A stretch of DNA of 64,000 bases from Escherichia phage CJ20. This document shows positions 7,162-62,573 of the stretch, piece after piece (position 1 is the stretch's first letter; each line of letters opens with the position of its first letter). Location: the sequence record MT533174.1. One strand, written 5' to 3'. Made by a program: the position numbers and the translations under genes. The notes under the pieces are model-generated. The model was not told where the DNA came from, did no database searches, and worked only from the letters and a program-made list of their open reading frames with translations.

Positions 7162-8585
7162 AAACTATTTTATCCCAGCTACTCTTTAACAAGGAATATT
7201 TTGTTAAAGTCTGGCCATATCTGAATAACACATATTTTGAAAAGGGTCCTGCAAAGACCCTTTTTAATACGATTAACGAACACGTAAAAGAATATCAAGC
7301 GGTACCAACTAAGACTGCACTTGATATCGCGCTCGACAGTTCTGACCTTTCTGAAGTCGAATATGAAGGCACAAAGAAACTCTTAGGAGTCCTGGCCGAT
7401 ACTCCAGAAGACCAGGAATGGTTGGTTAAAGAAACCGAGAAGTATGTACAGAAGTCTGCGATGTTCAATGCCACATCCAGGATTATCGAAATCCAGAGTA
7501 ATGCCGAACTTCCGAAAGATAAACGTGATAAACGAATCCCGGATATTGGTGCTATCCCTGACATCATGCGCGATGCATTGTCTATCTGTTTTGACTCTGC
7601 TCTGGGCCATGACTGGTTAAACGATTACGAGGCTCGATTCCAGACTTATCTGAACAAATCGAAGAAGGTTCCGTTCCGTATTAACATCCTGAATAAAATC
7701 ACGAAAGGTGGAGTTGAGTACGGTACAGAGAACGTTTTACTGGCCGGGACAAACGTCGGGAAATCCCTTGGACTTTGTTCGTTAGCGGCTGACTATCTTC
7801 AGACTGGTCATAACGTTCTTTATATAAGCATGGAAATGGCTGAAGAAGTATGTGCCAAACGTATTGATGCCAACTTGCTGGATGTGTCTCTGGATGATAT
7901 TGATGAAGGTCATGTGTCATGGGCGGAATATAAAGCTAAGATGGAAAAATGGCGTGCTTCCGGGACTCTTGGGACTCTGAAGATAAAACAATATCCAACT
8001 GGCGGTGCTCATGCAGATACCTTCCGCGCATTGCTGAATGAGTACAAGCTGAAGCAAGGGTTTGTGCCGGATGTGATTATTGTTGACTACCTGGCAATCT
8101 GTGCAAGCTCAAGACTGAAAACGTTTACCGAAAACAGTTACGGCCTGATTAAGATGGTTGCAGAAGAACTTCGTGGTCTGGCTGTTGAGAAAAATGTAGT
8201 CCTGTGGACTGCAGCGCAGACAACCAGGGGCGCGAACGTTGCAGCTGAGATTGATATGGCTGACATCGCAGAATCCTTTGGTATTGCTCACACGGCCGAC
8301 TTTATGTTGGGTGTTGTTGAGACCGAAGAATTCGCTCAAATGGGTCTACAGTTAATCAAACAGCTTAAGTCTCGTTATGGCGATAAGAACTACTATAATA
8401 AATTCAAGATGGGTGTTAAGAAAGGCAATCAGCGCTGGTACGAGGTTGATGATGATTCAGCTCCTAAACAAGGCCCTACGGTTAAAGAAGCCACCGGTGA
8501 GATGAATCGCCAGGCTGAAATGAATAGACAAACCAGGGTCAACAGGAGCGACCTGGACGACCTTGCTGCTCAAATGAAATTCTAA
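7146..8585 (+). CDS. 41: Replicative DnaB-like helicase gp41
   Basis: 479 aa; Walker A GTNVGKS; N-terminus aligns with T4 gp41; start codon ambiguous (GTG at 7146 or 7155). Confidence 0.95.
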   Translation: MVEVVETILSQLLFNKEYFVKVWPYLNNTYFEKGPAKTLFNTINEHVKEYQAVPTKTALDIALDSSDLSEVEYEGTKKLLGVLADTPEDQEWLVKETEKYVQKSAMFNATSRIIEIQSNAELPKDKRDKRIPDIGAIPDIMRDALSICFDSALGHDWLNDYEARFQTYLNKSKKVPFRINILNKITKGGVEYGTENVLLAGTNVGKSLGLCSLAADYLQTGHNVLYISMEMAEEVCAKRIDANLLDVSLDDIDEGHVSWAEYKAKMEKWRASGTLGTLKIKQYPTGGAHADTFRALLNEYKLKQGFVPDVIIVDYLAICASSRLKTFTENSYGLIKMVAEELRGLAVEKNVVLWTAAQTTRGANVAAEIDMADIAESFGIAHTADFMLGVVETEEFAQMGLQLIKQLKSRYGDKNYYNKFKMGVKKGNQRWYEVDDDSAPKQGPTVKEATGEMNRQAEMNRQTRVNRSDLDDLAAQMKF

Positions 8586-20517: not shown

Positions 20518-20546
20518 TGTACAAGGCCAATGGAAAGAGACATAAT
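20518..20546 (+). promoter_or_regulatory. Early sigma70-type promoter
   Basis: AAAAAGTAGTGTACA, TGTACA 20518-20523, CATAAT 20541-20546, leader TCATCAACTACTGATGAGGA 20551-20570. Confidence 0.5.
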
Positions 20547-20577
20547 CATCTCATCAACTACTGATGAGGATAACAAA

Positions 20578-20835
20578 ATGATTACTTCTTTTGAAATTGG
20601 CCAACAATATGAAATGTCTGCTCTTCAAGCTGCTGAAGCAGGTCTGACTAAAGCGTTTGAATGTGCATTTGCAAATATTCGTGGTAAAATCTTTACTGTC
20701 AATAAAATTGCGGTATATGATAAAGAAACAGACATGAACAAAGGCATCTACCTGAACGTGTCAAATGCAAAAGGTCGTCGTGAAATTATGGTTGTACAAC
20801 CTAATCAACTGGCGATGTTCAATAAGGTTGCATAA
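20578..20835 (+). CDS. Hypothetical protein (85 aa)
   Basis: ATG 8 nt after GAGGA of leader motif. Confidence 0.45.
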   Translation: MITSFEIGQQYEMSALQAAEAGLTKAFECAFANIRGKIFTVNKIAVYDKETDMNKGIYLNVSNAKGRREIMVVQPNQLAMFNKVA

Positions 20836-21590
20836 TGAAACCAGAATTTATTGACTTTGATGTTGTAAGTATGTATGTTCGCCCAATTAAACCATTAAAA
20901 CTTGAGAAACAAAATATGACTATTGAAATTAACAAAACTTATCAACTGATTGAACCTATTATTCAAAACGCAGCTATGGTTTCTGGATATAATACTTTGA
21001 CTGATGCTTTAGGTGAAGGCGAATTTATTGTTGAAACTTTTGTAAAAAGTAACTGGTTTGATAAAGCATATATTCTACATGCACGTCGCCTTGATACAAA
21101 TGAAGTAGAAAAAATTATGGTTTATGAAGCTGAGATTGAACTCTTTAAAGAAGTTGAAGAAACTCCTATCAAAGTTGGTAAAACCTACCAGCTTATTGAA
21201 GATGATAGTCAATTTGGAAAGACTGTCGCAATGCATGCTGGTTGGCGTGTACTAAAAGGTATTTTTGGATTTACTCCATTTACCGTTAAAACAGTTAAGT
21301 ACCACAATCACCAAAGCATCTTTGAATTTACTGCAGTCAATGAATCAGGTGACAATCTTGAAGCTATCCTTTATCCGCGTGAATCTGTACTGCTGAAAGA
21401 AGTTAGCGAACTGGGTGACCCTGTTGACTTGCTGTGTAAACCAGTTCAAATCAAACGTCCATTTAATAGTTCCATTTGTGGTTGGGTAACAGACCAGTGG
21501 ATTGAAGATGGTGTTGAACTCCTGAACGTCGTCCATGCTGGTGAATTTACTGTTGTCCCACGTTCCATGGTTGTTGAAATTTTTAATTAA
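20835..21590 (+). CDS. Hypothetical protein (251 aa) with internal repeat and C-terminal DQWIEDGV domain
   Basis: KTYQLIE occurs twice; C-terminal 35 aa paralogous to C-terminus of ORF 21667-22158. Confidence 0.5.
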   Translation: MKPEFIDFDVVSMYVRPIKPLKLEKQNMTIEINKTYQLIEPIIQNAAMVSGYNTLTDALGEGEFIVETFVKSNWFDKAYILHARRLDTNEVEKIMVYEAEIELFKEVEETPIKVGKTYQLIEDDSQFGKTVAMHAGWRVLKGIFGFTPFTVKTVKYHNHQSIFEFTAVNESGDNLEAILYPRESVLLKEVSELGDPVDLLCKPVQIKRPFNSSICGWVTDQWIEDGVELLNVVHAGEFTVVPRSMVVEIFN

Positions 21591-21595
21591 ATTTG

Positions 21596-21624
21596 TGTAC
21601 ATACTCTTGGGACCAGAGTATAAT
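21596..21624 (+). promoter_or_regulatory. Early sigma70-type promoter with -10 inside hairpin loop
   Basis: TGTACA 21596-21601, TATAAT 21619-21624; hairpin GGGACC(AGAGTATAAT)GGTCCC 21609-21630. Confidence 0.5.
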
Positions 21625-21666
21625 GGTCCCACTGGAGAATAAACTTATTAACCAAGAGAGAAAATT

Positions 21667-22158
21667 ATGAAAGTTGAAGCTGGTGATATTGTACGTGTTT
21701 CTAAAGAATCTCGTTCTAAAGCTGCTGGTCGTTTTGTTGAGGTTGTGGGTCTTCGCACTAATTTAGTAGGTGGAATTAAAGAAGTTAAAGTGCGTATTAT
21801 TCCTAAACATGGTCATGCTGAAACTCAATTGGCTTATGTACATCCTAAATTCCTGGAATCAACTGAATTTACTGGATACATCGCTCCAGTAGTTGAAGAA
21901 GTTGAAACCATTGACCAGTCTCATGTTGGGGTTGATTTTAAATGGAAATTAGGTAAAGGTGTCTTTTTCGTTTCACCTAAACCGTTTGAATACAAGTGCA
22001 AGTATGGTCCGACTTATGAAACCACTAGTATGTCCGGTTACATCACCGACCAGTGGGTTGAAGAAGGCGTTAAGCTCTATAACATCGTGTTCCTTGGAAC
22101 CTTTAAGGTTGTTCCTGAGAGCTTTATCGTTGAGTATGCTGATATTCATTTTGCCTAA
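21667..22158 (+). CDS. Hypothetical protein (163 aa), C-terminal DQWVEEGV domain
   Basis: C-terminus GYITDQWVEEGVKLYNIVFLGTFKVVPESFIVE parallels GWVTDQWIEDGVELLNVVHAGEFTVVPRSMVVE of previous gene. Confidence 0.5.
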   Translation: MKVEAGDIVRVSKESRSKAAGRFVEVVGLRTNLVGGIKEVKVRIIPKHGHAETQLAYVHPKFLESTEFTGYIAPVVEEVETIDQSHVGVDFKWKLGKGVFFVSPKPFEYKCKYGPTYETTSMSGYITDQWVEEGVKLYNIVFLGTFKVVPESFIVEYADIHFA

Positions 22159-22204
22159 ATTATAAAAATGATAGGGTTTTTACCCTATCAATGAGGAGAA
22201 TATT

Positions 22205-22980: not shown

Positions 22981-23241
22981 ATGAAATACATTAATCGTTC
23001 TATTGCAGCGCTGGTGCTGGCGGTTTCATTGGCTGGTTGTACTGATGCAGATAATGCCATTCGTGTATTAGATGCAAACGGCTATGAGCAAATCCAAATC
23101 ACCGGTTATAACTGGTTGGGTTGCTCTGAAGATGATTTTCAGCATACTGGTTTTACGGCCGTAGGCCCAACTGGTAAGAAAGTTAAAGGAACTGTTTGTT
23201 CTGGATTGCTGTTTAAGAATTCAACCATCCGATTTGAATGA
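22981..23241 (+). CDS. Predicted lipoprotein (86 aa)
   Basis: Signal peptide with lipobox LAGC. Confidence 0.5.
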   Translation: MKYINRSIAALVLAVSLAGCTDADNAIRVLDANGYEQIQITGYNWLGCSEDDFQHTGFTAVGPTGKKVKGTVCSGLLFKNSTIRFE

Positions 23242-23248
23242 GGATATT

Positions 23249-23653
23249 ATGTTTAAAATTGGAAAGAGTTATCACATTAAAGATTTAGATGGCTTCCTTA
23301 AACATGTCGGTATGCCTGGTAGCATTTTGAACCAACAAGGAACCTCTATCATTGATTTGGTTACCACCAAAGAGTTTTCAGTCACTAAGATGGAAGCAAA
23401 TGTTGTTACGGAATTTAGTACTATCGATGGAACTGGATTTTCTTTCCATAGTCGTAATGGAACCGGTCTTATTTTTGGTGATGAATTTAAATATTTTGAA
23501 GAAACCCCGATAAAGGAATATGATTCTGAAATAACCGAACAGGAATCAAAAGAGGATATCGTTGTTACCGGTGGCGATGTTATTATTACGGTTAAAACTG
23601 AAGCCGGACGCCTACAAGCTATTAAAATGTTAGAGCAGCTTCGATTCAAATAA
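23249..23653 (+). CDS. Hypothetical protein (134 aa)
   Basis: ATG 23249 after SD GAGGA; terminator directly downstream. Confidence 0.45.
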   Translation: MFKIGKSYHIKDLDGFLKHVGMPGSILNQQGTSIIDLVTTKEFSVTKMEANVVTEFSTIDGTGFSFHSRNGTGLIFGDEFKYFEETPIKEYDSEITEQESKEDIVVTGGDVIITVKTEAGRLQAIKMLEQLRFK

Positions 23654-32597: not shown

Positions 32598-32626
32598 TGT
32601 ACATACTCTTGGGGTCAGAGTATAAT
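32598..32626 (+). promoter_or_regulatory. Early sigma70-type promoter with -10 inside hairpin loop
   Basis: TGTACA 32598-32603, TATAAT 32621-32626; hairpin GGGGTCA(GAGTATAA)TGACCCC 32611-32632. Confidence 0.5.
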
Positions 32627-32670
32627 GACCCCACTGGAGCACAAAACTTTAACTTACTGAGGAAATTAAT

Positions 32671-52086: not shown

Positions 52087-52124
52087 GATTCCATCAACTA
52101 CTGATAACAACTGAGGAAATAAAA

Positions 52125-52487
52125 ATGGAAATCGGCAAAAAATATGAGTTCAATCCACATCGTATTAAATCTTTCATTGATATTAGTTCATCGAATGCTA
52201 GTATGGTCGACATCATCCAAGAAAATGGCGGTTGGTTTGAAGTTAAATCAATATCAAGTGCAGACGGCTATGATTATGTAACCGAAATCATTTGTGCTAA
52301 TGGTGCAATCTATAATGATGATGGCATGGGTGATGATTATTTTGAACTTAGTGAAGAAGAGTTTTATTGCTTCCGCGAATACTCCAGTTATGCAAAAACA
52401 CCTTCAGGGGCGGTTTCTATTAATTGTGTTGTGGATGCTAATAACGTCGACCAAATCATTGAACTTCTACAAAAAGCTTTCAAATAA
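52125..52487 (+). CDS. Hypothetical protein (120 aa), paralog of 52834-53202
   Basis: Shares G.Y, FI, DY, YFEL.E.EF..F.E spacing with ORF 52834. Confidence 0.5.
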   Translation: MEIGKKYEFNPHRIKSFIDISSSNASMVDIIQENGGWFEVKSISSADGYDYVTEIICANGAIYNDDGMGDDYFELSEEEFYCFREYSSYAKTPSGAVSINCVVDANNVDQIIELLQKAFK

Positions 52488-52777: not shown

Positions 52778-52833
52778 TATACAAACCAACGGGAACATGC
52801 TAATATGTTCCCAACTGAAATGAGGAAATTAAA

Positions 52834-53202
52834 ATGATGGAAACTGGTAAATTTTACGTATTAGACCCTGCTGCTAAAAAACAATTCATCGCTGGTAGTC
52901 CTGATGATAATTCGTGCATAGTCAAGCTGATGGAACAGCATGGCAGTTCCTTCAAAGTCCTGGATATGTGCTTTATTGATGGCGATTATTTTGTTGAAAA
53001 AGTTGAAATGAAAGATGGCACCATCCTGAATAGTATGGGGGATTCTGATGAGTACTTTGAACTCGCTGAATGGGAATTCTGTCACTTCCTGGAAGTTGAT
53101 GGCGATGCTCCTTATGTTGATACCCAAACCATTCATGTGCAGGTAAATCATAAAAATGCCGCAGAAGTCATTGCACTGATTAAAGCAACTTTTGGGGTCT
53201 AA
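52834..53202 (+). CDS. Hypothetical protein (122 aa), paralog of 52125-52487
   Basis: See 52125; SD GAGGAAATTAAAATG. Confidence 0.5.
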   Translation: MMETGKFYVLDPAAKKQFIAGSPDDNSCIVKLMEQHGSSFKVLDMCFIDGDYFVEKVEMKDGTILNSMGDSDEYFELAEWEFCHFLEVDGDAPYVDTQTIHVQVNHKNAAEVIALIKATFGV

Positions 53203-62412: not shown

Positions 62413-62516
62413 TTGAGTCTTGTATCGATGGGTCGGATGTCATTCTATTTGGCTTTACATGCTTTTGTTTTGGAATCGTGCTTAGCATGTGTATAAATGG
62501 TATTTTTGGAAAGTAG

Positions 62517-62545
62517 TTTACAAACTCTTGGGAGCAGAGTATAAT
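62517..62545 (+). promoter_or_regulatory. Early sigma70-type promoter with -10 inside hairpin loop
   Basis: TTTACA 62517-62522, TATAAT 62540-62545; hairpin GGGAGC(AGAGTATAAT)GCTCCT 62530-62551. Confidence 0.5.
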
Positions 62546-62573
62546 GCTCCTACGGATTATAAAATTTGAGGAA

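Follow-up and report, generated by a model that had tools for sequence, protein, structure and literature searches.

An adjacent motB.1-type and motB gene pair in Escherichia phage CJ20 with a common C-terminal domain and two N-terminal modules in the MotB.1-type protein

The motB.1-motB locus

This study concerns two adjacent open reading frames (ORFs) in a 64,000-nucleotide stretch of Escherichia phage CJ20 (record MT533174.1), which is called the window here and in whose positions coordinates are given unless another record is named. An earlier reading made from the letters alone, without database searches (the sequence-only reading), had delimited both ORFs and quoted peptides from each; coordinates and peptides are correct, and both ORFs are on the plus strand. 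The best explanation, and one that we hold with high confidence, is that the two are the early genes motB.1 and motB of a T4-like phage of Gaprivervirus (the SP18 group):

20835-21590, plus strand: ORF1, motB.1-type gene, 251 amino acids (SP18 annotation; phrog_2333, E 6.5e-79; identity to T4 MotB.1)
21667-22158, plus strand: ORF2, motB gene, 163 amino acids (full-length match to PF17613; identity to T4 MotB)

Over the 2.1 kb around both genes, Shigella phage SP18 (Tevenvirinae, Gaprivervirus) shares 97.6% DNA identity with the window and about 30 related coliphages share 93%–98%. The SP18 counterparts of ORF1 and ORF2 are annotated as motB.1 and motB, respectively, and the PHROG family assignments agree with these identities. 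The SP18 gene order, modA-srd-dda.1-dda-dexA-motB.1-motB-cef-goF-39.2-39.1-39, is the same in T4. In the window we find the early, non-essential block dda-dexA-motB.1-motB-cef-goF, in which the neighbors of the pair encode the Dda helicase, the DexA exonuclease, Cef and GoF, and in the window, SP18 and T4 alike the ORF1 gene lies directly upstream of motB within the early dexA-goF interval. The accessory location that had been proposed for the pair is borne out, both genes lying in a non-essential early region of a T4-like genome.

Adjacent paralogs with a common C-terminal domain are already known at this locus, both as annotation and in print. Son et al. (2021; PMC7827196, section 3.2 and discussion) stated that MotB and MotB.1 have a C-terminal domain in common and that their genes are adjacent, described four categories of homologues and suggested gene duplication, and a 2025 study (PMC12152347) described an LSm-like N-terminal domain of MotB.1. 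The sequence-only reading delimited the pair correctly and interpreted it sensibly in its main lines; it did not recognize the pair as named genes with a published relationship, and as a discovery it is of little weight, since the gene pair is annotated in public genomes and the C-terminal paralogy is published. The value of the present analysis is that a natural two-barrel variant of MotB.1 is documented, that a likely frameshift in the T4 reference motB.1 is described and that an argument from charge and fold is made for the shared domain.

The shared C-terminal domain

The C-terminal domain is the sole module common to ORF1 and ORF2 by sequence:

21417-21587, plus strand: ORF1 C-terminal domain, residues 195-251, core motif GWVTDQWIEDGVELLNVVHAG (PF17613, hhalign, AlphaFold2)
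21922-22146, plus strand: MotB (ORF2) C-terminal domain, residues 86-160 (predicted local distance difference test, pLDDT, mostly >90; hhalign against the MotB.1 family)

The related segments had been described as 35 amino acids long with about 70% DNA identity. The relationship holds (composition-adjusted BLASTP of ORF1 against ORF2, E 1e-12 across 38 amino acids), but the segments measure 33 amino acids, with 19 of 33 protein positions (58%) and 61 of 99 DNA positions (62%) identical. When the family profiles are compared with hhalign, the match covers 53 columns at a probability of 98.7% and an E of 3.7e-16, which upholds paralogy by way of the C-terminal domain and places the shared module at residues 199-251 of ORF1 and 94-159 of ORF2, the latter with an 11-residue insertion. 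ORF1 also scores 35.5 bits against Pfam PF17613 (gathering cut-off 25) over model positions 118-154 only, which makes it a member at the level of the domain. No copies of the C-terminal domain beyond those of ORF1 and ORF2 were found in the 64-kb window.

Across the C-terminal domains of MotB and MotB.1 the invariant positions are F, D, W, E, G, L, N, V, G and V, none of them basic, and the alignments within the MotB and MotB.1 families agree with the non-basic character of the invariant residues. [quoted passage not shown] (2021); the N-terminal region of ORF1 is of non-KOW type, and domain hidden Markov models (HMMs) gave no KOW match in ORF1.

That the C-terminal similarity could be due to chance or composition, with no common fold behind it, has in its favor that the segment is short and nothing else. 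The E values above, the PF17613 gathering score passed by ORF1 and the same five-strand pattern modeled twice, once in each of the AlphaFold2 models that were built for both proteins from family alignments, make this explanation so improbable as to be negligible. The sequence-only reading had named low-complexity similarity without a common fold as the result that would undo its proposal; the segment is not low-complexity, its strand pattern is the same in both models and we ruled out a low-complexity or chance origin from the BLASTP, hhalign and predicted-strand results.

Two N-terminal modules in ORF1

Upstream of the shared domain, ORF1 has a leader and two N-terminal modules:

20835-20915, plus strand: leader, residues 1-27, motif IDFDVVSMYVxPIKPL (conserved in the alignment; pLDDT <50, predicted disordered)
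20916-21161, plus strand: module type A, residues 28-109, small barrel (AlphaFold2 elements)
21162-21413, plus strand: module type B, residues 110-193 (homologue of both module A and the LSm-like domain at the N-terminus of T4 MotB.1)

The heptad KTYQLIE, found at ORF1 residues 34 and 116, had been taken to indicate an internal domain duplication. The repeat of about 82 amino acids is real: residues 28-109 and 110-193 are identical at 29 of 83 positions (35%), their Smith-Waterman score of 75 compares with 24 ± 4.5 for shuffled sequences (z 11.4), and an HMM of each repeat detects the opposite repeat (1e-10 and 4e-9). In the AlphaFold2 model of ORF1 (pLDDT 73.9, predicted template modeling score 0.39) both modules follow the order strand-helix-three strands-short helix-strand (residues 35-106 and 117-190), the elements of module A being strand 35-38, helix 46-59, strands 63-71, 78-85 and 91-97, helix 98-103 and strand 104-106.

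What does not stand is a recent origin of the repeat. A recent tandem duplication within the gene would explain homologous modules in tandem, each carrying the heptad, but it is improbable, as the repeats are only 35% identical and each is nearer the single modules of other phages: repeat 1 to the lone N-terminal module seen in some 104 other cluster representatives of MotB.1 type, repeat 2 to that of T4 MotB.1 and of the representative P0095. Because of this low identity, and because each subtype occurs alone elsewhere at the same locus, ORF1 is, as judged from these comparisons, better described as two old N-terminal subtypes that have been joined. They were probably brought together by recombination between motB.1 genes, whether paralogous or allelic.

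T4 MotB.1 (P39415) resembles ORF1 in lying directly upstream of motB, in its LSm-like N-terminal module and in its MotB-type C-terminal domain. ORF1 residues 112-251 are 47% identical to the 143-amino-acid form of T4 MotB.1 that is discussed below, module B is 38% identical to T4 MotB.1 residues 2-115 (E 2e-17), and a Foldseek comparison of the ORF1 model with P39415 gave an E of 1e-6 and a template modeling score of 0.61. ORF1 differs by about 110 extra N-terminal residues, which comprise the conserved leader and module A, and module A is the sole N-terminal module in most MotB.1-type proteins of Tequatrovirus and Mosigvirus. In the two papers that deal with MotB.1, the terms 'tandem' (for domains) and 'duplicat' are not applied to it.

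The published LSm-like family comprises GoF along with MotB.1 and Frd.2 (PMC12152347). Like the N-terminal domains described for that family, each ORF1 repeat is modeled as a bent antiparallel sheet of five strands plus one helix; this set of elements appears twice in the ORF1 model, and repeat 2 is clearly homologous in sequence to the N-terminal domain of T4 MotB.1. When the ORF1 repeats are compared by sequence with GoF and Frd.2 of the window, no link is significant. Pairwise scores of the repeats against GoF are not above those of shuffled sequences, and within the window the module-A HMM matched best, self-matches apart, two Frd.2 paralogs at non-significant E values of 0.17 and 0.75, which agrees with the LSm-like family link already published. 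These two Frd.2-family genes lie about 300 bases apart at 52089-52484 and 52819-53199 (PF03197, E 2e-35 and 4e-33). Neither pairwise nor HMM comparison gave anything significant between the ORF1 repeats and the extra N-terminal domain of 247-amino-acid MotB.1 variants or the 139-amino-acid ORF at 23234-23653.

Family architectures and distribution

We classed 240 cluster representatives, collected in two database searches, by domain HMMs. With CTD for the C-terminal domain and X for an unrelated domain, the architectures were:

KOW-CTD, 118 of 240: MotB
A-CTD, 104 of 240: the usual MotB.1-type protein in Tequatrovirus and its relatives, 141-183 amino acids
A-B-CTD, 8 of 240: the type found in the window, 250-252 amino acids
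X-A-CTD, 8 of 240: with an extra unrelated N-terminal domain
B-CTD, 2 of 240: T4 MotB.1 and P0095

Hybrids were found beyond this census, among the proteins returned by the exhaustive search described below. Some combine a MotB-like KOW domain, the leader motif of MotB.1 and a MotB.1-type C-terminal domain, the motif standing between the KOW and C-terminal domains (P0247, P0249, P0250, P0255), and one has the order B-leader-CTD. The family is thus assembled by module shuffling around the C-terminal barrel, and it is Gaprivervirus that has both N-terminal subtypes in tandem, whereas other phages have one or the other alone. As a separate observation, MotB.1 variants of 245-250 amino acids in other phages have a different extra domain fused at the N-terminus.

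The family is a narrow set of small phage-type proteins, mostly of T4-like phages. An exhaustive search of 1.84 billion cluster representatives with the C-terminal-domain profile returned only 36 proteins with E ≤ 0.001; some 28 of these are genuine small family proteins. The long proteins among the matches (601-862 amino acids) were rejected as members: P0259 is repetitive and fibre-like and matches through a short repeated SGYATEQWVE-like motif, and the others match in the same manner, through four to seven short segments that all fall on one part of the profile. By tblastn the family occurs in 738 of 50,697 phage records; 33 records have A and B in tandem (at least 80% identity). A predicted peptide of 43 amino acids, P0261, consists of 16 N-terminal MotB.2 residues (13 identical to T4 MotB.2) followed by the 27 residues that end the MotB.1 C-terminal domain; it looks like what a deletion would leave behind, akin to the 29-amino-acid RB69 peptide of Son et al.

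A probable frameshift in the T4 reference motB.1

In the T4 reference record NC_000866.4, motB.1 encodes 119 amino acids and ends at GWVTDQWIGRWR followed by a stop codon, with one extra G relative to window positions 21495-21510. The extra G falls at 1792-1812 of the T4 locus, at about 7291-7311 of NC_000866.4, and its removal gives a T4 MotB.1 of 143 amino acids with a complete MotB-type C-terminal domain. Another 13 T4-type records encode this 143-amino-acid protein in one piece and with 100% identity (T4T, MT984581, KJ477684-6, OL964735/45, OZ209023/57, OZ035787, MZ375356, RB55 and RB59), and two pieces are needed to recover it only in AF158101.6 and NC_000866.4. From these records the 119-amino-acid form looks like the product of a one-base frameshift, and, missing about the last half of the shared domain, it is probably not the protein that T4 makes. 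The 2025 study quoted a MotB.1 of 13.8 kDa and used synthesized genes (PMC12152347), from which it may be that the truncated MotB.1 was used; the reading of experiments based on a 119-amino-acid construct could be affected.

MotB and the host

ORF2 matches PF17613 (MotB, modifier of transcription) over model positions 1-161 of 162 with an E of 6.9e-51 and 172.7 bits (cut-off 25), shares 53% identity with T4 MotB from end to end (163 versus 162 amino acids) and is 100% identical to MotB of Escherichia phage CJ20. Its AlphaFold2 model (pLDDT 79.9) has a four-strand N-terminal barrel at residues 8-58, and the protein has the layout of the MotB family, with a basic KOW-like barrel at the N-terminus and the conserved C-terminal domain after it. 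Besides the C-terminal domain listed above, its parts are:

21667-21864, plus strand: MotB N-terminal domain, residues 1-66, basic KOW-like small barrel
21865-21921, plus strand: MotB acidic linker, residues 67-85, net charge -5 (pLDDT <50 at 68-83, largely predicted disordered)

On this sequence evidence ORF2 is the orthologue of T4 MotB, which it resembles in length class, two-domain layout, position between motB.1 and cef and the upstream promoter core. The genus differs (Gaprivervirus versus Tequatrovirus), while the architecture does not.

T4 MotB is an early protein, produced from about 1 minute post infection (PMC6070864; PMC7827196), that is toxic in E. coli and doubles burst size (Patterson-West et al., 2018; PMC6070864). 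Its binding to DNA, whether modified or not, is tight and without sequence specificity, and it co-purifies with H-NS and StpA on DNA (PMC6070864). It alters the H-NS footprint and de-represses some H-NS-silenced genes, with 75 host genes up-regulated, about a third of them H-NS-regulated (Son et al., 2021; PMC7827196). Only for the T4 protein are DNA binding, toxicity and effects on H-NS documented, and by orthology the same activities would be expected of ORF2.

The sequence-only reading had called the pair typical of host-takeover or anti-defense effectors. The first label fits ORF2, because experiments show T4 MotB to be an early protein that is toxic and directed at the host (PMC6070864; PMC7827196); for the second we found no evidence for either gene. 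That both proteins could inhibit a bacterial immune system would suit early, non-essential, architecturally variable genes in an accessory region, and MotB does interfere with H-NS, a silencer of foreign DNA (PMC7827196). However, literature searches gave no experimental link to any defense system, knock-down of T4 motB leaves the phage transcriptome unchanged (PMC6070864) and T4 motB.1 mutants have no phenotype in the laboratory strains tested (PMC12152347), and we regard an anti-defense role of the pair as improbable.

Fold and proposed roles of the domains

In the AlphaFold2 models the C-terminal domain has five strands in the same order in both proteins, at 203-206, 214-224, 227-234, 237-242 and 246-248 in ORF1 and at 98-110, 116-132, 135-142, 145-150 and 154-157 in ORF2. 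In ORF1 a short helix is predicted between strands 4 and 5, and a helix is absent between strands 3 and 4 in both models. Since the helix is placed between strands 4 and 5 and not between 3 and 4, an SH3-like topology is favored, which suggests that the domain is an acidic SH3/Tudor/KOW-like five-strand barrel. The resemblance to SH3-like barrels (KOW of NusG/Spt5, Tudor, PWWP, chromo) is at the level of fold only, with 8%–20% identity and no detectable sequence homology, and the MotB family profile gave no match to the sequences of solved structures even at an E of 10. The mean net charge across the family is +5.9 for the MotB N-terminal domain and -4.1 for the C-terminal domains of both branches.

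Son et al. (2021) proposed for the C-terminal module an OB fold like that of cold-shock DNA-binding proteins (SCOPe b.40.4.5) or of the C-terminal part of eIF5A, in which a helix lies between strands 3 and 4. On that view the module would itself bind nucleic acid, MotB and MotB.1 alike would bind DNA or RNA by means of it, and the role of the N-terminal modules would be to modulate this activity. Against this stand the acidic charge of the module throughout the family, the invariant residues D, W, E, G, L and N, which are not basic, and the predicted placement of the helix, which is the SH3/Tudor/KOW pattern. On the models the published OB assignment is weakened rather than excluded, and we consider it possible, though rather doubtful.

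As a mechanism we propose that the basic KOW barrel of MotB is most likely the DNA contact and that the conserved acidic C-terminal barrel, with its invariant D, W, E, G, L and N, is most likely a common docking or self-association module. Docking or pairing fits the C-terminal barrel better than DNA binding does, because of its acidic charge and the lack of a basic invariant residue. The C-terminal barrel would then bring both paralogs to the same target, and the N-terminal modules would differ in ligand, which would be DNA in the case of MotB and either RNA or a protein in that of the LSm-like MotB.1 barrels. Separately, motB probably has an early promoter of its own, described below. This assignment of DNA contact to KOW and of docking or pairing to the C-terminal barrel, drawn from sequence properties, is tentative, with somewhat less than an even chance of being right. 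In its most specific form, the C-terminal barrel would be an acidic SH3-like module that pairs MotB with MotB.1, both abundant early proteins, or docks both on one host target, such as H-NS/StpA-DNA filaments, and interchangeable N-terminal barrels (KOW, A, B, A+B) would bring different activities, for binding nucleic acid or protein, to that one site; this version is unlikely to be correct. If it were true, the double-barrel MotB.1 of Gaprivervirus would be a bivalent adaptor. For work on T4 early genes, the make-up of the family, with exchangeable small barrels on one conserved acidic C-terminal barrel, suggests a testable division of labor among the domains.

Several points weigh against the explanation given here. 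The grounds for the domain roles, KOW for DNA binding and the C-terminal barrel for docking, are confined to net charge and conservation, and Son et al. (2021) hold that either MotB domain could bind DNA (PMC7827196). The ORF1 model is of moderate confidence, with unreliable relative positions of the domains. The fold searches used whole multi-domain models, their output does not indicate which domain was aligned, and EF-P and eIF5A chains are also among the matches of these searches. T4 motB.1 amber and deletion mutants are without a phenotype in standard laboratory assays, and a T4 MotB.1 reporter assay showed no strong post-transcriptional effect (PMC12152347). Finally, the motB promoter is a consensus match only.

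Upstream ORF, promoter-like cassette and stem-loops

The start codon of motB.1 overlaps the stop codon of a preceding 101-amino-acid ORF (TAATG), and because of this overlap translation of motB.1 is probably coupled to it. The upstream ORF (20530-20835) belongs to a function-unassigned family, phrog_17795, and the corresponding position in T4 is occupied by the unrelated motB.2. Comparison of the 101-amino-acid ORF with the ORF1 repeats gave no significant pairwise score or HMM match.

Three further elements lie around motB:

21596-21624, plus strand: sigma-70/T4-early-type promoter-like site before motB, TGTACA-17-TATAAT (10 of 12 matches)
21609-21630, plus strand: inverted repeat GGGACC-N10-GGTCCC around the -10 hexamer (RNA fold)
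22169-22190, plus strand: nine-pair stem-loop TGATAGGGT-tttt-ACCCTATCA between the motB stop codon and the ribosome-binding site of cef (-13.4 kcal/mol, z -2.3)

A promoter and hairpin had been noted between the two genes, and a promoter-like site with a stem is indeed present there. The site is the joint best on the plus strand of a 4.3-kb scan, and the RNA fold of 21588-21672 has an energy of -19.3 kcal/mol (z -2.7). A 33-nucleotide stretch that takes in the spacer, the stem and the -10 hexamer (core ACTCTTGGGACCAGAGTATAATGGTCCC) is identical upstream of T4 motB. We considered the intergenic stem as an intrinsic terminator and rejected it, no U-tract following the stem. The stem lies upstream of the start site expected for its own promoter, which leaves DNA and read-through RNA as the only places where it could form.

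The early-promoter-like cassette ACTCTTGGGnnCAGAGTATAATGnnCC has three copies in the window, at 21596-21630, 32598-32633 and 62516-62551, where 0.12 are expected by chance. In each copy 6-bp arms bracket the -10 hexamer (GGGACC/GGTCCC, GGGGTC/GACCCC and GGGAGC/GCTCC(t)); the arms vary between copies yet stay complementary, with 2 of 6 stem positions fully compensated. Read on the minus strand, the stem-loop at 22169-22190 has a T-run after it and receives a terminator-like score.

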